The notes beneath the pieces were generated by a model, which did not search any database, was not told where the DNA came from, and saw only the letters and a program-made list of their open reading frames with translations. Made by a program: the position numbers and the translations under genes. From a virus (lineage: Duplodnaviria; Caudoviricetes), in the IMG/VR virus record IMGVR_UViG_3300032267_000041, positions 1 through 26,464 of that record: a stretch of DNA of 26,464 bases, one strand, 5' to 3'. Positions 5,589-21,161 of the stretch are shown piece after piece (within the stretch, counting starts at the first letter, position 1; each line of letters opens with the position of its first letter).

Positions 5589-7981
5589 TGGCTTCAAAAT
5601 TAATCAGCACAAGTATTCCAAATTTATTAAATGGAGTAAGTCAGCAACCAGATACAATAAGATTACCTAACCAAGCTGAAACTCAAGAAAATGGTTTATC
5701 AGATGTTGTTTATGGTCTTGGTAAAAGACCACCATCAATTCATGTAGCAAAATTAAATACTGATACTTTTACTAATAGTAAAATTCATTTTATTAATAGG
5801 GACTCAACTGAAAGATACACAGTATTAATTAATAATGGTTCTATAAAAGTTTATGATTTAAATGGTAATCAAAAAACAGTAGTAGCACCTTCGTTAACTT
5901 ATTTAACAACTACTAATCCAGTTCAAGATATAAATCTTGTAACCGTTGCAGATTTTACCTTTGTTGTAAATAAAACTATAACTGTAGCTAAATCTGGCAA
6001 CGTAACTAGCACTAGACCTGATGAAGCAATTTTTTATGTTAAAAATGGTCAGTATAAAACAACTTACGAAATTAAAATAAATGGAAGTACTGTTGCTAGT
6101 TATCAAACTTTAGACAACTCTACTTCTTCAAATGCGTCTTCAATAACTACAGATAATATAGCAACAGAATTATATAACGATTTAGTTTCAGCATTTCCTT
6201 CTGGCTATACGATTGTCAGAGACGGCTCTATAATTTATTTTGCAAAAACAACTGGTACTTTTACAGCAAGCGTAAGTGATGGTATTGGTGGTGACGGTTT
6301 AATATTAGTTAAAAATAAAACCAACTCATTTTCAGATTTACCATATAAAGGCTACACTGGGTTTTTAGTTGAAGTAACTGGGGACAAAGGTACGGAATTT
6401 GATAATTACTATGTTTACTGGGACGGGGACGCTTGGGTTGAAACTGTTGCAGATGGTTTAGATAATAATTTTAATACAGCAACACTTCCCCACGTATTAA
6501 TTAGAACAGCTGATGGAAATTTTAGATTTTGTAAAGCTGATGGTTCAAGTTATACAATAGGAGCAACATCATACACAGTACCGACATATAACGGAAGAAC
6601 TTGTGGTGATATAGATACAGCTAGCGACCCAAGTTTTGTTGGTAATAAAATTCAAGATATTTTCTTTTATAGAAACAGATTAGGTTTATTATCTGATGAA
6701 AATGTTATCTTTTCAAAAGTAAGTGAATTTTTTACTTTTTACCCAGAGACAGTAACTACAATATTAGACGACGATGCAGTTGACGTGGCTGTAAGTCATA
6801 ATAGAGTAAGTAATTTAAAATGGGCTGTAGCATTAAACGAAGAACTTTTATTATTTTCTGACACTACACAATTTTTATTAAAACCAGAAGAAACTTTAAC
6901 TTCTAAAACAGTAGCAATTAATCAAGCAACTGAATATGAAATTGACTCTATTTGTAAACCAGTACCAATAGGTAAAAATGTTTACTTTTCTTTTAGACGA
7001 GGAACTTATGCTGGTGTTAGTGAATACTTCTTATCAAGTGATTTATTAACAAAAGAAGCAAATGATACTTCATTAAATGTCCCTAGATATTTGAATGGTA
7101 GGGTTTATTCATTAAAGGGTTCAAACACAGAAAACACTTTATTTGCTTTTAGTAGTGAGGCAAGAAACACAATAGGCGTTTATAAATTTTATTTTGACTC
7201 TAGTAATAAATCGCTACAAAAATCTTGGTCTAAATATATCTTCCCAACAGGAACAGTATTATTAGACGGTGAAGTTATAGATACATTTTTTTATCTAGTA
7301 GTTAAAAGAGACGACGGAGTTTATTTAGAAAAGATAAATCTAAAAACTAATGAAGTTGATACTAACTTAACTTTCCCAGTATTATTAGATAGGAAAGTTA
7401 GTGTTACTGGAACTTATAATTCTACCACTAATTTAACTACATTTACTTTACCTTACCCAGATACGCAGACTAGGGCAGTAGTATTAGGTGGCGACTGGTC
7501 TTCAACACAAAGAGGTAGATCGGTTGATATTAATTCATCAACTTCAACAACTGTTGTAGTAGTTGGTAATTATTCTACTAACCCAGTCTACATAGGTAAT
7601 AAATATAATTTTAAATACAGATTTTCTACTTTTTATGTAAGAGAGCAAAGAGGCTCTGGTACAACTTCCACAATTAATTCTGGTAGATTACAACTTAAAA
7701 AATTAAAACTTGTTTACGGAGATACTGGGTATTTTAATGTAAGTTTATTTCCTACAGCTAGAGATACAAGTATATACCAATTTACGGGACAAATTTTAGG
7801 TTCTAGTAATTTCATTTTAGGTAAGCCAACTTTAGAAAGTGGAAGTTTTAGCTGTCCTATACAATGTAGAAATATAGATATTGATATAGAAATTAATAGC
7901 GATAGTTATTTACCATGTAATTTCTTATCGGCTGAGTGGGAAGGTCTTTTTACAATATTATCACAACGAGTAGCTGTGTAA
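5588..7981 (+). CDS. tail tubular protein B (gp12-like)
   Basis: 797 aa; IPNLLNGVSQQPD..R, KRPP, PSFVG.KI.DIFFYRNRLG.LS.ENVI.S, Q.SWS. Confidence 0.96.
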   Translation: MASKLISTSIPNLLNGVSQQPDTIRLPNQAETQENGLSDVVYGLGKRPPSIHVAKLNTDTFTNSKIHFINRDSTERYTVLINNGSIKVYDLNGNQKTVVAPSLTYLTTTNPVQDINLVTVADFTFVVNKTITVAKSGNVTSTRPDEAIFYVKNGQYKTTYEIKINGSTVASYQTLDNSTSSNASSITTDNIATELYNDLVSAFPSGYTIVRDGSIIYFAKTTGTFTASVSDGIGGDGLILVKNKTNSFSDLPYKGYTGFLVEVTGDKGTEFDNYYVYWDGDAWVETVADGLDNNFNTATLPHVLIRTADGNFRFCKADGSSYTIGATSYTVPTYNGRTCGDIDTASDPSFVGNKIQDIFFYRNRLGLLSDENVIFSKVSEFFTFYPETVTTILDDDAVDVAVSHNRVSNLKWAVALNEELLLFSDTTQFLLKPEETLTSKTVAINQATEYEIDSICKPVPIGKNVYFSFRRGTYAGVSEYFLSSDLLTKEANDTSLNVPRYLNGRVYSLKGSNTENTLFAFSSEARNTIGVYKFYFDSSNKSLQKSWSKYIFPTGTVLLDGEVIDTFFYLVVKRDDGVYLEKINLKTNEVDTNLTFPVLLDRKVSVTGTYNSTTNLTTFTLPYPDTQTRAVVLGGDWSSTQRGRSVDINSSTSTTVVVVGNYSTNPVYIGNKYNFKYRFSTFYVREQRGSGTTSTINSGRLQLKKLKLVYGDTGYFNVSLFPTARDTSIYQFTGQILGSSNFILGKPTLESGSFSCPIQCRNIDIDIEINSDSYLPCNFLSAEWEGLFTILSQRVAV

Positions 7982-8454
7982 TGAATATTATAGAAAGAAA
8001 CACTACAATAGATGACATTGTAGGTTTAATTTCTAACTTAAGAAAAGAAGATTTATTAGAAGTACAAACAATTACTGGTCAAGATAAAATTTATAAACCA
8101 CTAAAAGAAAGTATTTTAAATTCAACTTATTCTAAATCTTTTTTAGTTGATAATAAAGTTGCTGGAATTTATGGAGTAACTGCATCACCATATAATAAAA
8201 ATACTGGTGCACCATATCTTTTATGCACAAATGAACTATACAAAATAAAAAAAACTTTTATTAAAAACTGTATTAATCGTGTCGAGGAAATGCAGTTCAA
8301 ATTTCCAATATTGTTCAATTACATAGATAGTAGAAATAAACTTCATCTTGATTGGATTAAGTATTGTGGATTTACAATCATTAACGACAAATATTTTAAC
8401 AACATTAAATTTCATGGTTTTATGAAAAAACGAGAGGACTTAAATTATGTGTAA
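7981..8454 (+). CDS. internal virion protein A-like (gp13, GNAT-like fold)
   Basis: NLR.ED..E, L.NYIDSRN.LH..W.K.CGF; start chosen at the TAATG overlap with gp12 rather than the track's 7936. Confidence 0.8.
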   Translation: MNIIERNTTIDDIVGLISNLRKEDLLEVQTITGQDKIYKPLKESILNSTYSKSFLVDNKVAGIYGVTASPYNKNTGAPYLLCTNELYKIKKTFIKNCINRVEEMQFKFPILFNYIDSRNKLHLDWIKYCGFTIINDKYFNNIKFHGFMKKREDLNYV

Positions 8455-9049
8455 TCCAACGGCATATGTTATATTTCAAGTAGCAAGTGCATATATGTCA
8501 TATAAAGCTGACGACGCATCAGCAAAAGCTACTAACGAAAGATCAGCTAATCAAGCTCAAACTTTAAGAGATAACGCTATTTATTCTGATAATTCTTTAA
8601 TAAGAAAAAAAGAATTAGAAGTACAAAAAGCTTCATTAAATAAATTTAATACAGATATTAAAGCTAAACAATTACTTGGCACAGCTAAAACTAAAATTGG
8701 CGAAAAAGGAATTGGTGGAAATGTTGTAGACACTTTACTAGGCGACATTGAAAGACAACGTGGTTTTGCTTTTAATACTATTGATACTAATTATGAAAAT
8801 TATGTAAGGGCAATCGACACTAATAGAGAAGAAACTAATCGAAATTATGTAAATCAAGTGTTGTCTTTACCAACAGCTTACAGACCTTCAATATTACCAT
8901 ATGCTCTTAAAGCAGGCGGAAACATAGCTGGAATGTATGTGTCAACTCAAGCACCAAATACTTTATTTGGAAATTCACAATCATTTGACGGAGCTAGAAG
9001 TATGACCGAGTATTCTTTAGAACCAACAGCGTGGAGCGGTAGTAAATAA
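8447..9049 (+). CDS. internal virion protein B-like (gp14)
   Basis: MCNP start, 200 aa, GE.G.GGN.VD.LL.D; synteny. Confidence 0.8.
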   Translation: MCNPTAYVIFQVASAYMSYKADDASAKATNERSANQAQTLRDNAIYSDNSLIRKKELEVQKASLNKFNTDIKAKQLLGTAKTKIGEKGIGGNVVDTLLGDIERQRGFAFNTIDTNYENYVRAIDTNREETNRNYVNQVLSLPTAYRPSILPYALKAGGNIAGMYVSTQAPNTLFGNSQSFDGARSMTEYSLEPTAWSGSK

Positions 9050-11166
9050 TGGCTAAAATTTCTACTGATTTAGGCGTTAATATAGCAATATCAGATGTAC
9101 CAGCGTCTAAAGGTATTGAGTCTAAAATCGCACCAGCCCCATCTGGTAAAGATACTTTTTCTGTACTATCTGAAGCATTAGGTTCATTAAACCCTAAAAT
9201 ATATGAATTAGCAAAACAAGGTGCTGACAGACAAAACGAAGAAGACGCTGTCTTAGGTGCTAATACAGTTAATGGAATGACGCTTGAAGAAGCTCGTAAA
9301 GCTCATCAAGATGGTTTCCCAGATATTTATAATGGCTGGGCAAGAGTTGGAGCATATAAGCAGTATGCAAATAATTCTAATGAAGAATTTGCTAGAACGT
9401 GGAAAAATAAATATTTAGAAAATAGAGCTGACCCAAACTATAATTGGGAACAAGATTACAAAATAGCTACTCAAGCTTATTTACAAGATAAACAAAACGA
9501 CCCATTCTTCCAAGATGCTTTTAGAAAAGAAACAAATAAAACAAAAGATTGGATTAGAGAAAAAGAATTTGCTTTTCAAAACGCAGAGCTTCAAGACAGA
9601 ATACAAACTGATACTGCATATAAAATATCTACTATACATGAAACAGTAATTGATAAATTAACTACAGATTTTAGAGCAACTATACCTTTAAATGAGTCTG
9701 GTAAAAACTTTGCAGGTAAACAAGAAGAATATATTAGACAAAATTTTGAGCAGGAGTTTTTAAAGCAATTTTATGATTTAAAAAATAATAGAAATCCAGC
9801 TCTTACAAATTTAGATTTTGATAAATTAGTAATTAAACAAGCAAATTTTCACGCTCAATCAGGTGGGGAGTATGCGGGTGCATTTTCACTTTTATTAACC
9901 GAAAAACGACCAGACGGAACTCCACCAATTATAATAAATCCAAAACTACAAGAAGAAGCTACGCAAGCTCTAGTAAATTTAAGTAAAGCTTTAAAAGTTG
10001 TTGATTTTGAAAATAAATACTACAACAATAATATATCTGAGTTTGACAACGCAGAGTTAAAACAATTACAAAATAATTTATTTAATAAAACTTTAACAAA
10101 GTATCAAAAAAGATACGGTAATACTGTAGAAGCTTGGGATTATACATTTCAACAACTTTCACCAACTTTTGCTAAAAATCCCCCTATACCCGAATTACAG
10201 CAATTACTAAATAGACCTTTAAGTTCTACTTATAACTTAGACACGCAAAAAGCTTTTGCACTTGCTTTAAGATTAGATGAGCAAGGTGCTTTAACTAGAT
10301 ATTTTGATGGTAATGAAAATTCAAAAGATGCCATGAAATGGTATATGGCAGTTCAATTATTTAGAGCTGGTCAAAACAAACAAGATATAATTAAAACACT
10401 ATCGGAATTAGAGCAGAGTAAAAAATTAACTACTCTAGACAATAAAGATCGTACTGAACTTGCAAACCAATTTTCTGGTTCTTTAAAAAATATTTATAAT
10501 AGAGATTTAATTTATAACACAGCTTCTTATTTTAAAAGTTTAGATAAAGACGGTACTAATTACGTTGACAGTACTAAAGAATTTATAAAAAAATATTATT
10601 ACGAAGATAAATCTGGGGTTCTAACTAGTAGAAGTAAACTATTATCTCTTGGAATTGAAGACTCTAATTACGACGTATTTAAAAATGAAGTTATAAATTA
10701 CATGAAAGGTATTCAGTATGTACCTGATAAAGATAAAGTTAAAGAGCCGAAAACTTACGGAGATTTCAACCGTGATAAATTTAATAAAGAATTATATAAA
10801 AATAATCCAAGTGCAAATCCCGGAAATTTAGCTGGTTATAAAGTTGATTTTGATGATTATGATTTTGCAGTTAACCCAGATCGTAAAACTGCGTGGTTCA
10901 CAAGAAAAAATGGCGTTAACTACTATGAGCCTGTCTTAATAGAAAAAGTTGTTGGTTATCGTCAAGATGGCAGTCCTATTAAAGAAACTAAAAGATTAGA
11001 AATAGATTTACAGCCATTTTTAGAAAAGATGAAAGCAGATAACAAATTAAAAGTTTCTGACAATGAAAGAAAAAGTTTTGATTTAGCTAAAAAACGATCA
11101 GAAGCAGTCCAAGAAATAAATAAATATAGATTAATGCCGTTGATTACAAACGCTTTTATAAAATAA
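9049..11166 (+). CDS. internal virion protein C-like (gp15)
   Basis: 705-aa helical-looking protein between gp14 and gp16; L.EAL.SLNP near the N-terminus; assigned mainly by synteny and size. Confidence 0.75.
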   Translation: MAKISTDLGVNIAISDVPASKGIESKIAPAPSGKDTFSVLSEALGSLNPKIYELAKQGADRQNEEDAVLGANTVNGMTLEEARKAHQDGFPDIYNGWARVGAYKQYANNSNEEFARTWKNKYLENRADPNYNWEQDYKIATQAYLQDKQNDPFFQDAFRKETNKTKDWIREKEFAFQNAELQDRIQTDTAYKISTIHETVIDKLTTDFRATIPLNESGKNFAGKQEEYIRQNFEQEFLKQFYDLKNNRNPALTNLDFDKLVIKQANFHAQSGGEYAGAFSLLLTEKRPDGTPPIIINPKLQEEATQALVNLSKALKVVDFENKYYNNNISEFDNAELKQLQNNLFNKTLTKYQKRYGNTVEAWDYTFQQLSPTFAKNPPIPELQQLLNRPLSSTYNLDTQKAFALALRLDEQGALTRYFDGNENSKDAMKWYMAVQLFRAGQNKQDIIKTLSELEQSKKLTTLDNKDRTELANQFSGSLKNIYNRDLIYNTASYFKSLDKDGTNYVDSTKEFIKKYYYEDKSGVLTSRSKLLSLGIEDSNYDVFKNEVINYMKGIQYVPDKDKVKEPKTYGDFNRDKFNKELYKNNPSANPGNLAGYKVDFDDYDFAVNPDRKTAWFTRKNGVNYYEPVLIEKVVGYRQDGSPIKETKRLEIDLQPFLEKMKADNKLKVSDNERKSFDLAKKRSEAVQEINKYRLMPLITNAFIK

Positions 11167-11167
11167 T

Positions 11168-14100
11168 ATGAGAAATATAGATTGGGATTTTATCAGTAAT
11201 AGAGAAGGTAATGAAACTACTGGTTATGTACCTAGAAATAAAGATAATACTATAGATGAAAATTCTGGTGTAACTATTGGGGCTGGATTTGACCTTGGTC
11301 AACAAACAGAACAAACAATAAAAAATCTTGGTTTTAAAGATTTATCTATTCTTGACACAGTTAGACCTTACTTAGGTTTAAAAGGTGCTAAGGCAGATGA
11401 AATTGCTAAAAATTTAACAATACCAGAAGATAAGCTTCCAGATTTTAATAATACTGTAAATAATTATTATGCCGATAATATTGAAAAACAATATGATAAA
11501 TTAACTAGATATAAAAAATTTAATGAACTAGACCCAGCTTTACAAACAGTAATAACTTCTGTTGGTTTTCAGTATGGTGATTTAAAGCGTACTCCTAAAT
11601 TTTTTAAAGAAGCCTTAGATAATAATATTGAAGGTGTAGTTGCTGAACTTAGAAATTTTGGTGATGATTATTCTCCAAGAAGAAATTTAGAAGCAGATTA
11701 TTTAATAAATAAAATTTCAAATATAGATACTAAAAAAAAACTTGAAATAGCAGACGACCCACTTACTCAAAAAGAAATGAACGGGGAGCTGTATATGGAT
11801 AGAGTTTTTAAAACTTTTCAAAATCAACCAGAACCTAGACCAAGTTTATTTACTGGGGCGGCAACAGCGGCAAAATTAAATTTTCTTGCTTTTACACTTG
11901 GTAGAACTTTAATTAACCAAAGCTATACCCCAGACCCCAATGGATTTTCTTGGAAAGATAATGAAGTAGAAATAAAAAAAGCATTTAACGATAATCAAAT
12001 ACGTCCTGAGTATTACGAGTTTTTTACTGACGCTGTTTCTAGGGAGCATTTTTACCACTTAATAGACAGAGTTAAAATGGAGCAAGATAATAGAGACATT
12101 CTCCATAAAATGGGTGCTACAGGACTTTTCCTAGACATTGGCTCTTATGCTTTAGACCCAGCTAACTTAATAGGGTTTGGTTACATACAAAAAGCTATGA
12201 TGGCTAAACAGTCTTTAACAGCAAGTAGATTAGAGAGATTTTTTGAAAATGGATTAGTGTTTGGGGCTTACGAGGGAGTAACTATGAGTATTCAAGCTAA
12301 TGAAAGTCCAAGCGTTGGTGCTGTAGATGTTATAGTAGCGGCGGGATTAGGTGGTGCTCTTGGAGGCGGTATCAGTGTTATTGGAAAAGCACAATTATCA
12401 AGAGTAGCTAAAGATATTGAAAACCTAGAACTTAAAGACGCTGGTTTAAAGAAAACTCCAAAAGGTGAAAAATTATTTGAAGATGTAAACACTTCAAAAA
12501 TTGACGCAAAAACTCATTTAGATGTAAATGAATTATTAGATACTTCTGATGTAGTTGATAAATCTATTATATATTCAAGTGCTAGAGACTGGCCTGTAGC
12601 AAAACTTTTTAGTTTAACTAAATCAGGTTCATTTGGTAGCAGTTTATCAGAACTTGCAAGATCGTTTGCTTATAAATTTTTAGAAGACCCAATAGGGTAC
12701 GCTTTTAAAGGTGAAGGTAGGGTAAGTAAAAGAATAGCATCACAAGAAGAAACAGTAGAACTTATTAGAGACAAATATTTAGCTATATCTATGAATGGTG
12801 TCGCTAGAGAAGTTAGAGACGCATTAAACGAATATTTAAAAGAAAACGGTTTAAATTTCTGGAGTAGACTTGCAAACGTTAATGCCAGAACCGATTTCAT
12901 GCAAAAAGTAACTAGGGCTATTAGAACATTTGACCCTAATAATAAAAATTTATTAGATACAGAATTATTAAAAAATAAACATATAGCTAAAGCGGCAAAC
13001 GCTTATGCTGATGCTTTTGAACGTTGGGGTAAGACATTAAAAGAAAATGGAATTGAAGGTGCTGAGTTTAATGTTAATAGAGGTTATATCCCTAGAAGAT
13101 TATCTTTAGAAAGGTACGCTCAACTTGAAGCAAAGATTGGTGAAAGTGGAATTATAGAGCTAATTACTAAAGGTATATTAGATAAACAAAAATATTTAAA
13201 TATACCAAAAGATGCCGAGTTAAAAGCTTCATTAGGAGTTAAAGAACTTAAATACACAAAACCAAATTTTAACGAAATAAATAACACTAACCAAGCTGGT
13301 AAAATAGCTCAAATTAATAAGCTTAAAGCTGATTTGGAAAGAACTAAATTAGTTATTGCTTCAAAACAAAAAGAAGTATCACAAGCGGCAAAAGAAGAAG
13401 CTAAAAAGATTAAAGAACAAATTAAAAAATTAGAACAAGAAGTTAAAGATTCAAAAATTAAATTAGAAGCTGATTTTGTCGGCCCCGATAAAGCCGAGTT
13501 AATGGCTAAGGCTATTGTTTCTTATATTAAAAACTCAAAACGAACTGGTGGGTTTGATTTAGAAGCTTTATTAAGAGTTAAAGACCCTGAGAAACTAAAA
13601 GAATTTTTTAAAGAAAGTTTCCCCCATTTAAAACAAAATGAACTCGATGAGTTAACTAAAAATTTAGCTAACGTAATGTCGACGATTACGTCTGGTAGGT
13701 TAGTTGAAAGAATTAAATTAAATGAATCTTTTGAAGCTACAATTAAAGGTCAAAAAGTTAGATTAGATGAGCTTTATGAAAATAATATAGATTTATTATA
13801 CAACGACTATTCTCATGAAATGTCTGGCTGGTCAGCTATGGCAGAAAGAGTTGGTATTAAAAGTAGGGACGAATGGAACTCATATAAAAACTCATTAATT
13901 ACCGACATTGAAAAATCTTATTCAAAAGATCTAGCTAATAAACAAGGTATTAAAAGATGGTTTGGCGAAAGAAGATTACAAGAAGAAATTTCAACACTAG
14001 ATAGTGTATTTCAAAACTTAATGGGTAGAAGCGGAGAAGCTCAAACAGCATGGGCTGAAGCTGGTAGAACTTTAAGAAGATATAATTTTATTAGAGTATT

Positions 14101-15355
14101 AAACCAAGTCGGTATTGCTTCAATTCCTGAGTTAGGAAATATTATTTCTGCAACTGGTATTAAAGCTTTTGTTCAAAATATTCCTGAATTTAAAAATGCT
14201 TTAAGAAGTATGAGGTCTGGTGCGTTAGATGACGCATTTTTTAAAGAATTAAAATATATTGGTTATGATGGTTTTGGTGAGGACTACTTACGAAGAATAA
14301 CTCACGCTACAGAGCAAGCAGATCAAGGTACAGCACTTCACGCTATACAAAGTTCTGGTAAAGTAAATAATTTTTTAACTACTGGTGAAAAAATCACAAG
14401 CTGGACTTCTGGTCTCACAGTTGTTGACACTACGTTAAGAAGAATAGCGACAAGAGCTTTTATTGATAAGTTTGCTGATGAAATGATAAAATTAAAAGCA
14501 AGTAATTTTAATTTTAACGGAGTAAATTTAAACAGATACAAAGTTTTAGGATTTACCGAAGCTGAACTTAAAAAGTTTGCGAATGAGTTTTCAAATGGTG
14601 CGGTAACTACTGAAGCAACTTTTTGGGGAACAAAAGTTAAAGCATTTAATTTTGCTAATTGGAAAGACCACGAATTACTAACTACTTTCGCACATAGATT
14701 AAATAGACACGTTAAACGTACTGTTCAATATAATTTCATTGGAGATAGTTCACAATTTTTCTCTGATAACACACTGGGTAAAATGTTAGGGCAATTTAGA
14801 CAGTTCTCCATTGTTGCTTGGAATAAACAATTTTTACACAATGTAGCTATGGGTGATTTTAGAACTTTCTCTAATTTTACTACAACAACTTTTGTTGCCG
14901 CTTTAGCTTACATGGGTCAAACACATTTCAATTCTATTGGTATGGGTGCAAAAGAAAAAGCTGAATACCTTGAAAAAAGACTAGGATTAAAAGGTGATTA
15001 TTCAAAATTAGGTTTAGCCGCATTTCAAAGAACTGGTTGGTCTTCTGTAATGCCAGCATTTGCAGATATAGCTACAAGTGCTTTAGCTCCAAACTATAGA
15101 TTTAACACCAGAACAAGTGGGTTAGAAGTTAATTTATGGAATGGTAACCCAACAATAAGTTTATTAGGTGATGCCAAAGACGTTGGACTGTCTTTTTTAA
15201 AAGCAACTAGAAGTGATTATCGTTTTTCAAAAGTAGACTTGAGAAGATTTACTCATTTATTTGCTTGGAATAATTCATACGGAATTTCTAATCTTTTACA
15301 TCATTTAATAGATAACAGCCCGTTACCAGATACGGGTAAAGAAAATTTATTTTAA
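11168..15355 (+). CDS. internal virion protein D-like (gp16) with N-terminal pesticin-type muramidase domain
   Basis: 1395 aa; N-terminal IDWDFIS.REG...GYVP...SGVTIGAGFDLGQ...QTVITSVGFQYG...RR..EA; C-terminal G....QFR.F motif; synteny. Confidence 0.85.
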   Translation: MRNIDWDFISNREGNETTGYVPRNKDNTIDENSGVTIGAGFDLGQQTEQTIKNLGFKDLSILDTVRPYLGLKGAKADEIAKNLTIPEDKLPDFNNTVNNYYADNIEKQYDKLTRYKKFNELDPALQTVITSVGFQYGDLKRTPKFFKEALDNNIEGVVAELRNFGDDYSPRRNLEADYLINKISNIDTKKKLEIADDPLTQKEMNGELYMDRVFKTFQNQPEPRPSLFTGAATAAKLNFLAFTLGRTLINQSYTPDPNGFSWKDNEVEIKKAFNDNQIRPEYYEFFTDAVSREHFYHLIDRVKMEQDNRDILHKMGATGLFLDIGSYALDPANLIGFGYIQKAMMAKQSLTASRLERFFENGLVFGAYEGVTMSIQANESPSVGAVDVIVAAGLGGALGGGISVIGKAQLSRVAKDIENLELKDAGLKKTPKGEKLFEDVNTSKIDAKTHLDVNELLDTSDVVDKSIIYSSARDWPVAKLFSLTKSGSFGSSLSELARSFAYKFLEDPIGYAFKGEGRVSKRIASQEETVELIRDKYLAISMNGVAREVRDALNEYLKENGLNFWSRLANVNARTDFMQKVTRAIRTFDPNNKNLLDTELLKNKHIAKAANAYADAFERWGKTLKENGIEGAEFNVNRGYIPRRLSLERYAQLEAKIGESGIIELITKGILDKQKYLNIPKDAELKASLGVKELKYTKPNFNEINNTNQAGKIAQINKLKADLERTKLVIASKQKEVSQAAKEEAKKIKEQIKKLEQEVKDSKIKLEADFVGPDKAELMAKAIVSYIKNSKRTGGFDLEALLRVKDPEKLKEFFKESFPHLKQNELDELTKNLANVMSTITSGRLVERIKLNESFEATIKGQKVRLDELYENNIDLLYNDYSHEMSGWSAMAERVGIKSRDEWNSYKNSLITDIEKSYSKDLANKQGIKRWFGERRLQEEISTLDSVFQNLMGRSGEAQTAWAEAGRTLRRYNFIRVLNQVGIASIPELGNIISATGIKAFVQNIPEFKNALRSMRSGALDDAFFKELKYIGYDGFGEDYLRRITHATEQADQGTALHAIQSSGKVNNFLTTGEKITSWTSGLTVVDTTLRRIATRAFIDKFADEMIKLKASNFNFNGVNLNRYKVLGFTEAELKKFANEFSNGAVTTEATFWGTKVKAFNFANWKDHELLTTFAHRLNRHVKRTVQYNFIGDSSQFFSDNTLGKMLGQFRQFSIVAWNKQFLHNVAMGDFRTFSNFTTTTFVAALAYMGQTHFNSIGMGAKEKAEYLEKRLGLKGDYSKLGLAAFQRTGWSSVMPAFADIATSALAPNYRFNTRTSGLEVNLWNGNPTISLLGDAKDVGLSFLKATRSDYRFSKVDLRRFTHLFAWNNSYGISNLLHHLIDNSPLPDTGKENLF

Positions 15356-15373
15356 CAAACAACAAAAATATAT

Positions 15374-17434
15374 ATGTCATTTGCAATTAATAATTATACA
15401 GGAAATGGGAGTACAACTACATTTTCAGTTACGTTTCCGTACATAACTCAAAGCCATGTACAAGTACGAGTTAATAACGTATTAAAAACTTTAAGTGTTG
15501 ATTATACATTCCCAACATCTTCAACTATTCAATTTACAACTGCACCAGCAAACGGTGTAAACATAAATTTTAAAAGATCATCTAATCAATCTGCTAGATT
15601 AGTAGACTTCCAAGACGGTTCTACAATTACTGAGTCAATTTTAGATCAAGACAGTAATCAAATGTTTTACATGTCTCAGGAAGCTATTGATATAACTACT
15701 AATACAATAACTTTAGACACAGACGATAAGTACAACGCACAGTCTAAAGTAATTAAAAATTTAGCTAACCCAGTCAATGCTAACGATGCAGTAAATAAAA
15801 CATATTTAGAAAACACTTGGTTAAGCACAGCAGATAAAGCAACATTAACAAACTTAAATTCAAACATAGCAAGTGTTACAGCAGTCAATTCTGCTTTAAC
15901 AAATGTAAATGCTGTAGGTTCAGATTTATTAGAACCAGTATCAGAAATTAATACAGTAGCAGTAAGTATAGCTAACGTAGATACAGTTGGTACAAACATA
16001 GCCAATGTAAATACTGTAGCTGGTAATAATGTTAATATAACTACTGTAGCATCAGCAAATTCTAACATCACGACTGTCGCAGGAGCTAATGCAAACATTA
16101 CTTCTATAGCTAGTCAAATTACACCTACAAATAATATTTCTACAGTCGCAGGTGCAGTTGCTAATATAGGAACTGTCGCAACAAACATAGCCAATGTTAA
16201 TTTGGTAGGTGGTTCTATTGCTAACGTAAATACTGTAGCAAGTGCTAACGCAAATATTACAACAGTTGCTACAGCAAATACAAATATTGGAACAGTTGCT
16301 ACAAACATTGTAAATGTTAATTCAGTTGGTGGTTCTATAGCTAATGTAAATTCTGTAGCAGGAAATTCTACAAATATAAATGCAGTCAATTCAAATTCTG
16401 GAAATATAAATATCGTTGCAGGTGCTAACGCAAACATTGCAACACTAGCAGGAATATCAGGTGCAATAAGTACAGTAGCATCTAACGTAGGCAATATTTC
16501 TACAATAGCAACAGATATTGCTAAAGTAATAACTACTGCAAACGATTTAAATGAAGCCACTTCAGAAATTGAAGTTGTAGCTAATGCTATAGCTAATGTT
16601 GATATAGTTGGAAATAATATTGCTAACGTAAACACAGTTGGTACAAACATTGCTAACGTAAATATAGTTGGAAATAATATTGGAACAGTAAACGATTTTA
16701 CAAACAGATATAGAGTTGCGTCATCAGACCCAACTACATCTAAAGATGCTGGAGATTTAGTATTTAATACAACAGCAAATGCTCTTAAATATTATAATGG
16801 AACTACTTGGGAAGCTATCGTTGCTGGTGGTTTAACAGATATAGTTCAAGATGGTACACCTCAGTTAGGTGGTGCATTAGATGTTAATGGAAATTCAATA
16901 GTATCAACTTCTAATGCAAATATTAACATTACACCTCATGGAACAGGAAAAGTAGTATTAGACGGAATATCTTATCCAACTTCAGACGGAACAGCTAATC
17001 AATATATTAAAACAGATGGTGCTGGTGTTTTAAGTTTTGGAACAGTTGATTTAACTAATTTATCTGCTTCTAATTTAACATCAGGAACAGTACCAAGTGC
17101 AAGATTATCTTTAACATCTTCAGATTTGCCTACAGTACCAACAACAAAAGGCGGTACAGGTTTAACTACAATAGGAACTGCTGGACAAGCATTAGTAGTC
17201 AATGGTGCAGGAACAGCTTTAACATACGCAAATTCTTCTTCAGCAGAAGTATATGGATTTTCTTTTATTGATGCAGATGGAGATGGTTACAAAGAAAGTC
17301 TGCAAGTAACCACAACAAATAATGGTGCAGACAGTATTTCTAAAAGTAATCACGCGGCTTTTAGAGACGTAGTGTTTAGTGGAAGTGGTTATACATTTTC
17401 CATATCTGCGGGTGATTTAATATTAACTTTATAA
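15374..17434 (+). CDS. tail fibre protein (gp17-like N-terminal tail-anchor domain)
   Basis: YTGNGSTTTFSVTFPY...V.V.VN...I.F.TAPA.G..I...R...RLVDF.DGS...LD....Q..Y..QE; then a repeat shaft and the TPQLGG.LDVNG fibre motif. Confidence 0.93.
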   Translation: MSFAINNYTGNGSTTTFSVTFPYITQSHVQVRVNNVLKTLSVDYTFPTSSTIQFTTAPANGVNINFKRSSNQSARLVDFQDGSTITESILDQDSNQMFYMSQEAIDITTNTITLDTDDKYNAQSKVIKNLANPVNANDAVNKTYLENTWLSTADKATLTNLNSNIASVTAVNSALTNVNAVGSDLLEPVSEINTVAVSIANVDTVGTNIANVNTVAGNNVNITTVASANSNITTVAGANANITSIASQITPTNNISTVAGAVANIGTVATNIANVNLVGGSIANVNTVASANANITTVATANTNIGTVATNIVNVNSVGGSIANVNSVAGNSTNINAVNSNSGNINIVAGANANIATLAGISGAISTVASNVGNISTIATDIAKVITTANDLNEATSEIEVVANAIANVDIVGNNIANVNTVGTNIANVNIVGNNIGTVNDFTNRYRVASSDPTTSKDAGDLVFNTTANALKYYNGTTWEAIVAGGLTDIVQDGTPQLGGALDVNGNSIVSTSNANINITPHGTGKVVLDGISYPTSDGTANQYIKTDGAGVLSFGTVDLTNLSASNLTSGTVPSARLSLTSSDLPTVPTTKGGTGLTTIGTAGQALVVNGAGTALTYANSSSAEVYGFSFIDADGDGYKESLQVTTTNNGADSISKSNHAAFRDVVFSGSGYTFSISAGDLILTL
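15862..16705 (+). repeat. degenerate 10-residue (30-nt) coding tandem repeat in the tail fibre shaft
   Basis: About 27 units of the NIANVNTVAG / ANANITTVAT type counted by eye; exact 21-nt repeat atatagttggaaataatattg at 16602 and 16662. Confidence 0.85.
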
Positions 17435-17457: not shown

Positions 17458-17943
17458 ATGGCAACAGTAAATATAGGTCGTTTAAGATTTGTATGGAAAG
17501 GAACATATAGCGGAGCAACAGCTTATGTAGTTGATGATGTAGTTTATTATGCAGGTGGTTCTTATGTATGTATTCAAAACACAACAGGAAATGCTCCATC
17601 AACAGGAGTCAATACTGCTTATTGGAATGTAATGTCAGTTGGTGGAACAGATATAACTTCATTAGTTGGTTTAACATCAGGAGACATAATAGTTTGGGAC
17701 GGAACTGCTTGGGTTAGACTAGGCAAGGGAACAGCAGGACAAGTTTTAAAAGTAAATGCTGGTGGAACTGCACTTGAGTACGGAACTGTAGATTTATCAA
17801 ATGTTGTTAGTACTGCCGACACTACTAATAGTAGAAGTGGAAATGGTGGTGGTCAGACAGTCAGTTATGCAACTTTATATAAAAACACGAACACTAATGT
17901 ACGTTTGCAACTTAATACAAATTGCAACTGTAACTGTTGCTAA
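17458..17943 (+). CDS. short secondary tail fibre/adaptor protein with C-terminal NTNCNCNCC tail
   Basis: RBS aaggag; N-terminal W.G.Y...TAY..DDVV.Y.G.SY.C...YW module common in phage fibres; GD.IVWDG..W.RL.KGTAGQVL fibre repeat; Cys/Asn terminus. Confidence 0.8.
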   Translation: MATVNIGRLRFVWKGTYSGATAYVVDDVVYYAGGSYVCIQNTTGNAPSTGVNTAYWNVMSVGGTDITSLVGLTSGDIIVWDGTAWVRLGKGTAGQVLKVNAGGTALEYGTVDLSNVVSTADTTNSRSGNGGGQTVSYATLYKNTNTNVRLQLNTNCNCNCC

Positions 17944-17973
17944 AATAATTAACAAAAAGGAAAATATAAAAAT

Positions 17974-18711
17974 ATGAAAATAATTTATTCAGTAGTGGCT
18001 AGAATGGCACACAGAATTAAAGTTACTGTAAATCAAAATGGATTTATAGTTTCTCAAAAAATGAAAAATGAAGAAGGAACAGAAACTATTTATTTTTCTG
18101 ATACAGAAGTGTTATATGAGGATATAAAAGCAAGAGCAGATTTCGCAGACCATTCTTGTTATAATATTTTTGAAGGAAAACTTGGTGTTTTTAATATGTT
18201 TGCTAACAGCAAATCAGCTAAATTATCTGGTCAAGATTTTGCTATTTTTAATGGTGGTAATTCAGCAGTATGTTTAATTATTCCATTTAAAAATTCTCCA
18301 GTTGAAGATTGGGTGTTAAGTATTAATGTTCAAAAAGATGAACCAGAATGGTTTGAATTAGTAGGTGCTACTGGCACACAAATGTTAATTAATCATTGTG
18401 GTCATAGTGCTGGGAGAGCAGATAATCTTCCTTTAGTACACTTTGATAATGCAAGTATATCAGGAGATACTAACGAAGTATTAGAACTTCCATTTACAGT
18501 TAAAAACGCAGATGGAACTACAGCAAATATAGACGCAGAAGTTTATTTTGAAACTACTGGTGGATTTTTACCAGTAACAAGAAAAGTAGTAAAAGGAAAT
18601 GGCACAGCTTTTATTAGTTTAAGAGACATTCCAAAAGGGGAGAGATTTAAAGTTAAAGTAGGTTTTAAAAACTTTAGTGGTATCTCCGAATGTCAAGTAA
18701 CAGTAAATTAA
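17974..18711 (+). CDS. hypothetical protein, C-terminal part predicted beta-sandwich/Ig-like
   Basis: RBS-like aagga; alternating beta-strand pattern in the last ~90 aa (LPFTVKN...EVYFETTGG...FKVKVGFK...CQVTV); the fold is inferred. Confidence 0.75.
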   Translation: MKIIYSVVARMAHRIKVTVNQNGFIVSQKMKNEEGTETIYFSDTEVLYEDIKARADFADHSCYNIFEGKLGVFNMFANSKSAKLSGQDFAIFNGGNSAVCLIIPFKNSPVEDWVLSINVQKDEPEWFELVGATGTQMLINHCGHSAGRADNLPLVHFDNASISGDTNEVLELPFTVKNADGTTANIDAEVYFETTGGFLPVTRKVVKGNGTAFISLRDIPKGERFKVKVGFKNFSGISECQVTVN

Positions 18712-19292
18712 TACAGCTTTGGCAGTCTGATATAGTTATTGATTATCAAAATAGAGAAACTTTAAACAATCAATTACTTCCTTATCTTTTAGATAAATAC
18801 AAACAAACAAGTCTTGGTAAAGAACATTACGAAAGAATACCTCATAATATCTTTGCTGATAATTTTGAACCAGTAAATCAATTAAAAGAATTATTAATTA
18901 ATACTACTAAAAATTATTATGACATTGGTGGTTTGGAATTTGATATTGAGGGACATGAAATAGTAAGCCACGACAGGCAATTTATTAAAACTCATGTAGA
19001 TACTGAAGAAGGCGATTTAACATTTCAATATTATGTTAAAGCACCAAAAGAAAACGAAGATAAAGAAACAAATTCTTTTGGTAATGCTTCGTTTGTTTTA
19101 GTTAATCCTGCTAGACCTGCTGGTTCTTTTACTTTTAAAAACGAACACTATTTAGAATATCCAGTTCTTCCTAAAGAGGGATTATTAATAATGTATCGTT
19201 CTTATATTCCGCATTATCAAAATCCATACGAAGGTAATGATGAGTTAGTTCAAGTAGTGGCTAATATTAAATTTAAAAGAGATTTACATTAA
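18690..19292 (+). CDS. putative 2OG-Fe(II) oxygenase superfamily protein
   Basis: HxD (THVD) followed by QYYVKAP, FVLVNP.RP, and PKEGLLIMYRSYIPH with the distal His; layout of phage 2OG-Fe(II) oxygenases. Confidence 0.75.
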   Translation: MSSNSKLIQLWQSDIVIDYQNRETLNNQLLPYLLDKYKQTSLGKEHYERIPHNIFADNFEPVNQLKELLINTTKNYYDIGGLEFDIEGHEIVSHDRQFIKTHVDTEEGDLTFQYYVKAPKENEDKETNSFGNASFVLVNPARPAGSFTFKNEHYLEYPVLPKEGLLIMYRSYIPHYQNPYEGNDELVQVVANIKFKRDLH

Positions 19293-20710
19293 TGCCAGAA
19301 TTTAAATTGGTATGCCAAAAAAGAGGTATGCCAAACTACTATTACTTAACAGCAGAACCTAAAATATTTTATTATAATTCTGAAACAAGTTCTTTGTTAG
19401 ATGAAAATAGAAATCAAGTTATAGAACAAGAAATAAAACAAGACCAAAAACTTGGTTGGAATTGGACTAAAGATAATCCAGCAACAAAAACAAAAGCAAT
19501 AAGACATCTTAAAATTTCTTTAGGATTATCTTGTAATTACTCTTGTAGTTATTGCTCTCAAAGATTTATTCCAAACGCAGACGAAACAACTAAAAAAGAA
19601 GTACCACAATTTTTAGAAAGATTTTCAAGTTGGTATGATGGTGGAGAAGATGGTCTAGGCAAAGGAACTAAAATTGAATTTTGGGGTGGAGAACCTTTAG
19701 TTTATTGGAAAACATTAAAACCATTGGCAGAAGGTATAAAAGAAAAATATCCCAACATGATATTTGGTATGATTACCAATGGAACTCTTTTAGATGACGA
19801 AAAGATTGAGTGGATTGACAAACTTGGCTTTAGTATTGGAATGTCTCACGATGGTGTTGGTTATCATATTAGAGGTAAAGACCCATTAGATAATCCAAAG
19901 CAAAAAGAAATGATTATGAAATTGTGGAATATATTATCTCCACAAGGCAGAATGAGTATTAATGCCATGCTTCATAAAGCAAATATGAGCAGAGCAGATA
20001 TACAAGAATTTTTATTAAAATATTTTGGAGAAAACCTAGTTATAGGCGAAGGCGAGTTTATTGATGCTTATGACGTTGGTGGAGTAGCCAGTTCACTAAC
20101 TACACAAAAAGAACAAATAAAATTTAGAACAAAATCTTTAGATGAAATTTCTTCTGGTAAGGCAGATAGATTTAGTGTTCTTCCAATGAAAATCGATGGT
20201 TTTATTAATACTATTGTAAATGGTAAATATAAAAGTTCAGTTTCACAAAAGTGCGGAATAGATAATCCTAATAGTCTTACAGTAGATTTAAAAGGAAACA
20301 CTATTACTTGCCAAAATGTTTCTTCTGTAGCAACAGCTCCTAATGGAGAAAGTCATCATACAGGAAGTGTTTATGATTTTAATAATATTAAAATGAAATC
20401 TATAACAACTTGGCAGAACAGAAAAAATTGCTCTAAGTGTCCAGTATTACATATCTGCAAAGCATCTTGTATGTTCTTAGATGGTGATTTATTTCAAGCA
20501 AGTTGTGATAATTCTTACTCAGATAATATAGTTTTCTTTGCGTTAGCTATAGAAAAGCTAACTGGATATTTACCAATTAGAGTTGAGGGTCAGCATCATA
20601 GACCAGACAGAGAAGATGTTTGGGGTTTAAGTGGTTTTCCAGTTGAACCAGTAAAACAAAAAGAATTACCAAAAAAATATAATTTTAACATTAATGGAGC
20701 AACAGTATGA
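19292..20710 (+). CDS. radical SAM enzyme with SPASM domain
   Basis: CxxxCxxC (CNYSCSYC), FWGGEP, ITNGTLL, SHDG; C-terminal KCG...TCQ...CSKCPVLHICKASC...C, containing the Cx2Cx5Cx3C SPASM motif. Confidence 0.95.
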   Translation: MPEFKLVCQKRGMPNYYYLTAEPKIFYYNSETSSLLDENRNQVIEQEIKQDQKLGWNWTKDNPATKTKAIRHLKISLGLSCNYSCSYCSQRFIPNADETTKKEVPQFLERFSSWYDGGEDGLGKGTKIEFWGGEPLVYWKTLKPLAEGIKEKYPNMIFGMITNGTLLDDEKIEWIDKLGFSIGMSHDGVGYHIRGKDPLDNPKQKEMIMKLWNILSPQGRMSINAMLHKANMSRADIQEFLLKYFGENLVIGEGEFIDAYDVGGVASSLTTQKEQIKFRTKSLDEISSGKADRFSVLPMKIDGFINTIVNGKYKSSVSQKCGIDNPNSLTVDLKGNTITCQNVSSVATAPNGESHHTGSVYDFNNIKMKSITTWQNRKNCSKCPVLHICKASCMFLDGDLFQASCDNSYSDNIVFFALAIEKLTGYLPIRVEGQHHRPDREDVWGLSGFPVEPVKQKELPKKYNFNINGATV

Positions 20711-20823
20711 AAAACAAAGACTGTAAATGTAAACCATGTACCTGCGGAAAAGAAGTTACCTGCAAGTGTGCTGAGAAAGTAACGAAGCTAAAAGAAAAAC
20801 TTAAACAACTAACAAAAAAATAA
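20707..20823 (+). CDS. 38-aa Cys-rich peptide (CxC x3), metallothionein-like or RiPP-precursor-like
   Basis: Below the ORF-track cutoff; my translation is MKNKDCKCKPCTCGKEVTCKCAEKVTKLKEKLKQLTKK; ATGA overlap with the rSAM stop. Confidence 0.7.
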   Translation: MKNKDCKCKPCTCGKEVTCKCAEKVTKLKEKLKQLTKK

Positions 20824-20824
20824 C

Positions 20825-20947
20825 ATGACAATATTATTAATGACATTAAGTTTTATCGCAGGAGCTTGGTTAGCATGGAGATATGAAAATATATTAGATG
20901 ATTTCATAGAACACTTTAAAGGATTAAATAATAAAAAAGATTCTTAA
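20825..20947 (+). CDS. 40-aa small membrane protein
   Basis: My translation is MTILLMTLSFIAGAWLAWRYENILDDFIEHFKGLNNKKDS; hydrophobic N-terminus; starts 1 nt after the previous stop. Confidence 0.6.
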   Translation: MTILLMTLSFIAGAWLAWRYENILDDFIEHFKGLNNKKDS

Positions 20948-20951
20948 AAAA

Positions 20952-21161
20952 ATGACACCTTATACATTTGAAGAAATACAATTTTTAAACAAACCAACAC
21001 AAGAGGAAAATATGTTCACACCTAAATTTGAAATTCCTTCTTACGAAGAAGCTAAGAAAGCTACAGAAAACTTCGCAGGACAGGTTCAGAAATTTTGGGC
21101 AGATGCTTTCAAAGACTACGCAAAGTCAGTTGAAGCATTTTTTCAAAATAACAAAAAGTAA
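20952..21161 (+). CDS. hypothetical amphipathic helical protein (likely start at ATG 21012)
   Basis: ORF track; gagga RBS precedes the internal ATG at 21012 (MFTPKFEIP..., 49 aa). Confidence 0.6.
   Translation: MTPYTFEEIQFLNKPTQEENMFTPKFEIPSYEEAKKATENFAGQVQKFWADAFKDYAKSVEAFFQNNKK

Follow-up and report, generated by a model that had tools for sequence, protein, structure and literature searches.

The DNA analysed here, a stretch of 26,464 nucleotides referred to as the window, carries that half of a T7-like phage genome which is devoted to morphogenesis, with genes for portal, scaffold, capsid, tube, nozzle, internal proteins, fibre and terminase. The nearest annotated relatives of the terminase, at 57-58% identity, are those of Rhizobium and Pelagibacter phages. 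Downstream of the anchor fibre lies a cassette in the order short fibre with an Asn-Cys tail, Ig-domain partner, oxygenase-like protein and radical SAM/SPASM enzyme. The features are as follows, where numbers with the prefix L denote other loci used for comparison:

15374..17434, + strand: main tail fibre, 686 aa, with a T7-type anchor domain (PF03906)
17458..17943, + strand: second, short tail-fibre protein, 161 aa (PHROG tail-fibre families 9851 and 5073)
17782..20947, + strand: swapped block (blastn against L300 and L299; ORF maps)
17812..17919, + strand: hypervariable pre-tail segment, residues 119-154 of the 161-aa fibre (comparison with L001; orthologue alignment)
17914..17943, + strand: Asn-Cys end NTNCNCNCC-stop, residues 153-161 of the short fibre (ORF reading)
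17920..17940, + strand: conserved core N-C-N-C-[N/Q/A]-C-C, residues 155-161, candidate modification site (orthologue alignment)
17974..18711, + strand: 245-aa partner with a variable N-terminal domain and a conserved C-terminal Ig-like domain, residues 153-245 (structure model)
18690..19292, + strand: 200-aa 2OG-Fe(II) oxygenase-like protein, accessory (sub-cut-off Pfam match, invariant His)
19292..20710, + strand: 472-aa radical SAM/SPASM enzyme (Pfam Radical_SAM, Cys motifs, fold)
20707..20823, + strand: 38-aa Cys/Lys-rich ORF overlapping the enzyme stop, within the swapped block (ORF list)

The anchor fibre is found at 60-68% identity in relatives that are free of the cassette. The 161-aa fibre, whose gene follows it, matches the PHROG tail-fibre families over residues 6-142, and its N-terminal ~110 residues are common to the cassette-free relatives, in which the protein ends in a globular domain. 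A scan for promoters and terminators gave hits at chance level only. The internal virion protein (11168-15355) carries an N-terminal lysozyme-type domain (Pfam Pesticin). The 38-aa ORF has three CxC pairs, a Lys-rich end and a metallothionein-like look; an identical copy is present in L001/L297, and no others among the fetched loci carry one.

The window has the internal protein and the anchor fibre (61-62%) in common with two close relatives, L299 and L300. Their short fibre also corresponds over its first 100-130 residues and then ends in a globular domain; behind its gene lie an ORF of 91-95 aa and one for a protein of 505-563 aa, and the enzyme is absent. The blastn similarity to both loci stops near 17760-17780 and resumes at 20948-20952. 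Thus, the tail and the cassette, ~3.2 kb in all, are swapped as a block at a site where relatives carry a conventional tip. From its position and homology we infer that the block is a host-recognition module, and homology likewise suggests that the fibre protein is present in virions; no virion data on this protein were found in the literature searched. Block replacement at the fibre locus among relatives resembles the swappable host-recognition modules (fibre plus chaperone) described in the accessible part of PMC10579305.

The sequence from 17914 to 17943, aat aca aat tgc aac tgt aac tgt tgc taa, encodes N153 T N C N C N C C161 followed by a stop. The initial annotation was correct in that this end holds three overlapping NxxC motifs (N153-C156, N155-C158 and N157-C160) and that four of the five Cys of the protein lie within the last six residues, the remaining one being C37. 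An assembly slip in the tail is unlikely, since an identical 161-aa protein is on record from 4 contigs (P0121). With residue frequencies for Asn and Cys taken from ten window proteins, the probability of NCNCNC at a given site is ~9e-12, and a chance origin of the tail is excluded. A search of the + strand of the same record turned up no further Asn-Cys tail. The alignment of C-termini that had been proposed as a check shows the tail to be conserved among cassette-bearing phages: in 11 orthologues (73-100% identity) N155, C156, N157, C158, C160 and C161 are invariant (11/11), while at position 159 five have N, five Q and one A.

Codon variation had also been put forward as an argument against slippage. 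For the window alone this argument has a caveat, as "aac tgt aac tgt" is a perfect 6-nt duplication and the window sequence by itself cannot exclude slippage. Family-wide the argument stands: adjacent Asn-Cys units are identical at the DNA level in 83 of 247 cases, against 31% expected under independence, and in 26 pairs of tails of the same length, each pair from one 90% enzyme cluster, 52 synonymous codon changes stand against 9 non-synonymous ones. Both results support selection at the protein level. A slippage microsatellite, or a low-complexity end that arose by chance and has no function, would account for the duplication in the window and for similar DNA patterns found antisense to unrelated genes (L258, L260, L266, L272, L005-L009). 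It would leave unexplained a tail that is conserved in 11/11 orthologues, coupled to an enzyme (see below) and without an excess of identical adjacent units, and the conservation and coupling counts refute it, leaving it a negligible probability. The tallies of coupling, Cys number, pre-Cys positions and codon changes include one spurious short ORF (L214, SCNC), which is excluded from the isolated-Cys, clustering and representative-locus counts.

The tail is tightly coupled to the radical SAM/SPASM gene. The enzyme belongs to a family of 2109 sequence clusters related at E <= 1e-40. A single-sequence locus search with the enzyme returned only 4 loci, and an alignment search was used instead; the counts from the locus scans cover the matches listed, and some scans kept the best 80 loci. 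The enzyme was present in 246 of the 253 sequences fetched. With a tail defined as an ORF ending in an (x-Cys)n run that contains Asn-Cys, and with loci taken as evaluable when at least 3 kb of upstream DNA was available, 147 of the 158 evaluable loci among the matches listed had a tail upstream of the enzyme; counted by clusters of 90% enzyme identity, again among the matches listed, the figure was 85 of 92. In the control set, 2 of 2457 ORFs downstream of related enzymes had a tail-like end. Seven of the 11 loci lacking a standard tail have variant Cys-rich ends or a Hint-linked run, and in L021, L082, L088 and L147 the enzyme is found without a recognisable tail in the fetched DNA. The enzyme gene of L021 lies at 7935-9191, and L147 resembles a deletion fusing the fibre and oxygenase regions.

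The converse search gave the same picture. A reverse DNA scan for NCNCNCNC-stop yielded 44 loci, 39 of them with a tailed ORF; of the other five, four were antisense or non-coding matches and one was cut by a contig end. Leaving out two tailed loci with less than 3 kb of downstream DNA, the enzyme follows downstream in 37/37 NCNCNCNC-stop genes with at least 3 kb of sequence behind them (7 of these 37 contigs were also among the forward viral loci). Among 32 evaluable loci that share only N-terminal fibre segments, a negative control, the tail occurs once, at the locus that is also the only one with the enzyme. A search with the exact NCNCNCC-stop DNA pattern produced 5 viral matches, none of which ends a listed ORF or lies near such an enzyme. 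On the strength of this two-way coupling it is very probable that the enzyme modifies the Asn-Cys tail.

The family occurs in the T7-like podophage of the window, in the Ackermannviridae phage RSP15, in phage JWF and in bacterial genomes. RSP15 and JWF provide cultured examples, the former with a fibre ending in NTNCQCGN together with partner and enzyme, the latter with the tailed protein gp28. A cassette partner gene accompanies the tail in 95 of 95 representative tail-bearing clusters (81 of the Ig-type family F0, 14 of the unrelated family F2), and the oxygenase family of the window is present in 52 of the 95 representative loci. No partner was found in the fetched DNA of L084, L085 and L292. 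The candidate substrates are, truncated ORFs aside, fibre-like proteins of ~90-890 aa and not short leader-core precursor peptides. Likewise, the designation of the tail as a "core peptide" is not borne out: the tail remains on the fibre protein, and no protease or transporter was identified among the cassette genes.

Several loci depart from the common layout. In L018, L034, L043 and L055 the cassette is enlarged by 4-8 unassigned genes lying between tail and enzyme, and L158 and L168 have a second radical SAM-like ORF. Three small paralogous Asn-Cys-tailed proteins (92-167 aa) are encoded ~1.4-2.3 kb upstream of the enzyme in each of L059, L178 and L193, where they share a single partner, a single oxygenase and a single enzyme. 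Proteins of 130-175 aa with many scattered Asn-Cys pairs lie directly upstream of the enzyme in L084 (7518-7937), L085 (7471-7941), L255, L256 and L282, with the partner downstream or not found. Phage RP12 (L012, 5168-10278) has a string of several distant radical SAM genes with 27% identity to the window enzyme, and no Asn-Cys tail was seen among the long + strand ORFs examined there.

The initial annotation had taken the overlapping NxxC motifs as a candidate core peptide and, citing NxxcB, had proposed interlocked Cys-Asn thioether rings, a register in which each Cys is linked to the Asn three residues upstream. As any (NC)n run automatically contains NxxC, the register was assessed on Cys residues N-terminal to the run that are not preceded by another Cys at position -2. 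Of 224 such isolated Cys, 204 have Asn at position -1 and 22 have it at -3, the background being 11.7%; after collapsing to 70% clusters the corresponding values are ~95/108 and ~13/108. Similarly, the first Cys of the run is preceded by Asn at -1 in 92 of 96 tails and at -3 in 21 of 96. With -1 enriched and -3 at background among the isolated Cys, the conserved unit is the adjacent Asn-Cys dipeptide rather than NxxC, and the three overlapping NxxC motifs are mostly a by-product of its repetition. In agreement with this, N153 is Asn in only 2 of the 11 orthologues, the others having Gly (4, no beta-carbon), Ser (3) or Tyr (2). The inner pairs N155-C158 and N157-C160 are invariant (11/11), which leaves some probability for an i to i+3 ring inside the run. 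A Cys-Asn thioether as such stays the leading chemistry.

Still, an NxxcB-like register, with overlapping NxxC beta-thioether rings (N155-C158, N157-C160 and optionally N153-C156), has points in its favour beyond the invariant inner pairs. At least one NxxC is present in 105 of 106 tails. The inner pre-Cys positions (n=254) are occupied by N (189), D (31), A (21), Q (6), V (5), R (2) and G (0), and the four commonest of these residues coincide with the acceptor tolerance of NxxcB, for which Asn is reported as the acceptor and Ala, Gln and Asp as tolerated (accessible part of PMC9389541). The last pre-Cys position is relaxed, falling outside N/D/A/Q in 15 of 104 cases as compared with 7 of 254 inner ones (p ~1e-4), and it holds all 3 Gly. 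This is what an i to i+3 ring predicts, and it could instead be edge fraying; the signal survives collapsing to 70% clusters (median p 0.008) and disappears with 60% clusters (p 0.32). Together with the isolated-Cys and first-Cys counts, this makes the NxxC register quite improbable.

The 472-aa enzyme has the radical SAM motif CxxxCxxC at residues 81/85/88, and C81/85/88 as well as WGGEP are invariant in 67/67 family members; the Pfam Radical_SAM score is 39.3 against a cut-off of 29.5. All seven SPASM Cys (321, 340, 380, 383, 389, 393 and 405) are equally invariant in 67/67, giving ten invariant Cys in total. The structure model (pLDDT 92.4) has three N-terminal strands and none of the three helices that go with them in an RRE. 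Its closest solved fold is CteB, a thioether-forming enzyme that joins Cys32 to Thr34 (Z 22.5, rmsd 4.0, 343 aligned residues, 17% identity, the alignment beginning at residue 1-2), followed by ChlB, anSME and TigE. No named maturase model reached its cut-off (PapB 59/340, SCIFF 38/425, QhpD 38/453 and TIGR04463, the model for the CrpC/CrpA system, 28/525 bits, as score/cut-off), PapB being the best-scoring NCBIfam model and still far below. No NxxcB sequence or model came up among the family models and solved folds that the enzyme matched. Eight SPASM Cys are canonical and a count of seven has been tied to an open site for a substrate Cys in work on the seven-Cys enzyme CrpC, which installs ranthionine links in a whole protein (PMC13692751, accessible part). 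By analogy, the seven SPASM Cys here match CrpC and would leave an open auxiliary site.

The residues in catalytic proximity, mapped by landmarks, are S/N89, W131, I161, S185, Q341 and N342, and only one of the six is identical to the corresponding F, F, T, S, H and Q of CteB (PMC10288494, as far as that text was accessible). With a match of 1/6, thioether chemistry is not secured; the family, in which these residues are near-invariant, appears to possess a distinct active site, and its type of reaction is predicted. A different reaction on Asn-Cys is to be considered, such as anSME-like oxidation at Cys C-beta to a thioaldehyde or formylglycine, or a heterocycle formed with the Asn amide or the backbone, with Asn at -1 serving as a specificity residue or nucleophile. 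The Asn(-1) requirement suits recognition as well as acceptance, the divergent proximity profile would fit, and anSME structures occupy ranks 2-4 in the Foldseek search. Against this, CteB outranks anSME by Z (22.5 against 18.5) with the N-terminal strands aligned too, the seven-Cys SPASM domain has the link to an open substrate-Cys site reported in the accessible part of PMC13692751, and no Gly occurs at 254 inner pre-Cys positions. Chemistry other than a thioether thus appears rather unlikely.

The oxygenase-like protein matches Pfam 2OG-FeII_Oxy_5 below the cut-off; it has H102-x-D104, and H102 and H175, which complete the HxD/E...H metal triad, are invariant in 44/44 sequences. 2OG oxygenases have a 2OG-binding Arg near the C-terminus. 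This family has no conserved Arg column after H175, and the window protein has no Arg there.

A further reading leaves the tail unmodified, with the Cys of three chains pointing into the fibre axis as a ladder that binds Zn, Cu, Fe or an Fe-S cluster, and the enzyme loading or building the cluster or acting on something else. Phage fibres are usually trimeric, and the T4 fibre needle has His-x-His metal sites. The strict Cys-x-Cys alternation would place all Cys on one face of a strand, and many tails end in an extra CC or CxCC. Such a ladder does not explain the Asn preceding scattered single Cys or the range of 2 to 9 Cys per tail, and the closest solved folds of the enzyme are peptide and protein maturases; we consider it improbable. 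In its narrower form, a fixed 12-Cys site in a trimer as suggested earlier, the idea is at odds with the Cys number, which is 4 or 5 even among close orthologues. In the fibres of L019, L037, L053 and L079 the Asn-Cys run is directly preceded by a His-rich stretch, which may be a metal site in this one lineage.

The segment preceding the tail behaves very differently from the tail itself. Compared with L001, the fibre has 2 differences in the 118 residues upstream, 26 in the 36 residues 119-154 and 1 in the tail, while the enzyme differs at 41 of 472 positions (91% identical) and the oxygenase at 6 of 200; by this measure residues 119-154 are the most variable part of the fibre. The partner shows 32 differences in its first 102 residues and 3 in the Ig domain. 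Thus, YATLYKNTNTNVRLQL is not supported as a sequence-specific enzyme recognition element and is rejected as a conserved leader, as residues 119-154 differ at most positions from those of a phage with a 91%-identical enzyme, and family-wide only a loose hairpin-like pattern recurs in the pre-tail region. Rather, the joint hypervariability of the pre-tail segment and the N-terminal domain of the partner suits a tip and partner that are matched to each other, or a surface that faces the host.

The partner is modelled with a pLDDT of 90.8, and its Ig domain finds matches at Z ~10 (rmsd 2.2-2.5 over 86-90 residues); the whole fold matches solely uncharacterised phage proteins. It falls in no Pfam, NCBIfam or PHROG family, searches gave no convincing PDB sequence match and no tblastn match in annotated phages, residues 1-152 have no look-alike in the Atlas, and no relationship was detectable between partner families F0 and F2. 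A complex prediction with three copies of the fibre tip and the Ig partner scored 0.01.

At four loci (JWF gp28 at L011:6793-8244, L087:5822-7255, L167:5727-7256 and L105:5223-6353) the Asn-Cys run is internal and passes directly into a Hint-like domain starting with CFP; in JWF gp28 the run reads NCNCDCNCNCS. The Pfam Hint models match from the CFP residue on, above cut-off in JWF only. Hint autocleavage occurs before the first Cys of the domain, so the run would become C-terminal again at these loci. This arrangement suggests that autocleavage exposes or activates the C-terminus of the tail.

Taken together, the two-way coupling, the dipeptide unit, the seven-Cys SPASM domain, the CteB-like fold and the NxxcB-like acceptor tolerance lead us to favour an adjacent thioether, in which the enzyme joins each Cys sulfur to an Asn from the Asn-Cys dipeptide unit, making either a ring or a staple between chains; we give this reading a probability of roughly 0.45. 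The enzyme would abstract a hydrogen from Asn, probably at C-beta, with the Cys thiol held at the open auxiliary Fe-S site. A small ring would then close in each unit or, if the fibre is trimeric, a bridge could form to the corresponding unit of a neighbouring chain. The Ig-domain partner may bind the variable pre-tail segment as a chaperone, adaptor or cap, the oxygenase would provide optional extra tailoring, and the matured tip is expected to act in host attachment. More broadly, and only tentatively, many unrelated phages may swap a folded receptor-binding domain for an enzyme-built tip carrying Asn-Cys thioether rings or staples, diversified by the oxygenase and in some cases released or activated by Hint; we hold this wider picture to be possible though doubtful.

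The system shares with NxxcB/NxxcA a radical SAM/SPASM enzyme encoded beside a substrate with Asn and Cys. In contrast to NxxcA, a short Streptococcus peptide with a single Cys23-Asn20 (i to i+3) beta-thioether ring (PMC9389541 and PMC8326336, accessible parts), the substrate here is the end of a phage fibre in which adjacent Asn-Cys is repeated 2-9 times, with Asn at -3 at background level outside the run. CteB/SCIFF (PDB 5WGG, 5WHY) and PapB/freyrasin are related as closest solved fold and best NCBIfam model, respectively; unlike with these ranthisynthases, scores stay below cut-off, the model lacks RRE helices, and the substrate is a fibre protein rather than a leader-core peptide. CrpC/CrpA of Methanococcus voltae (PMC13692751, in its accessible part) and QhpD/QhpC offer parallels in thioether cross-linking of a whole protein, C-terminal Cys repeats and a seven-Cys SPASM domain. 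In CrpA, however, the Cys precedes the acceptor (C-x-x-Q/D-type motifs), and that system is cellular, without fibre, Ig partner or Hint variant. A precedent for radical SAM cross-linking of neighbouring residues is TqqB, which forms a morpholine through an ether between adjacent Thr and Gln (PMC9389541, accessible part); there the link is an ether, the donor precedes the acceptor, and the substrate is a short peptide. The Cys32-Thr34 link made by CteB is a second precedent at short range.

Radical SAM cassettes added in the host-recognition region have been noted in pelagimyophages (PMC7029224), where the accessible text names no Asn-Cys tail, substrate or mechanism. No description of the Asn-Cys tail/enzyme system and no report of an adjacent Asn-Cys thioether were found in the open-access literature searched. 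The supplements obtained for PMC10288494 (1 file) and PMC13692751 (3 files), possibly incomplete sets, gave no match for the system, and the accessible part of PMC9959647 held nothing further on it. The pairing of tail and enzyme is thus real and widespread, a phage variant of protein maturation by radical SAM enzymes that is apparently undescribed. It probably works like a ranthisynthase system and appears to lie outside the NxxC family.

The 161-aa fibre has no more than three Asn-Cys units and is among the simplest candidate substrates found, so that the ring register is testable with few variants. If the proposed chemistry is correct, a virion protein would join the few whole proteins that radical SAM enzymes are known to mature, in a register unlike NxxC, and host recognition in many phages and prophages would depend on enzyme-made chemistry that is hidden from both genome sequence and structure prediction.
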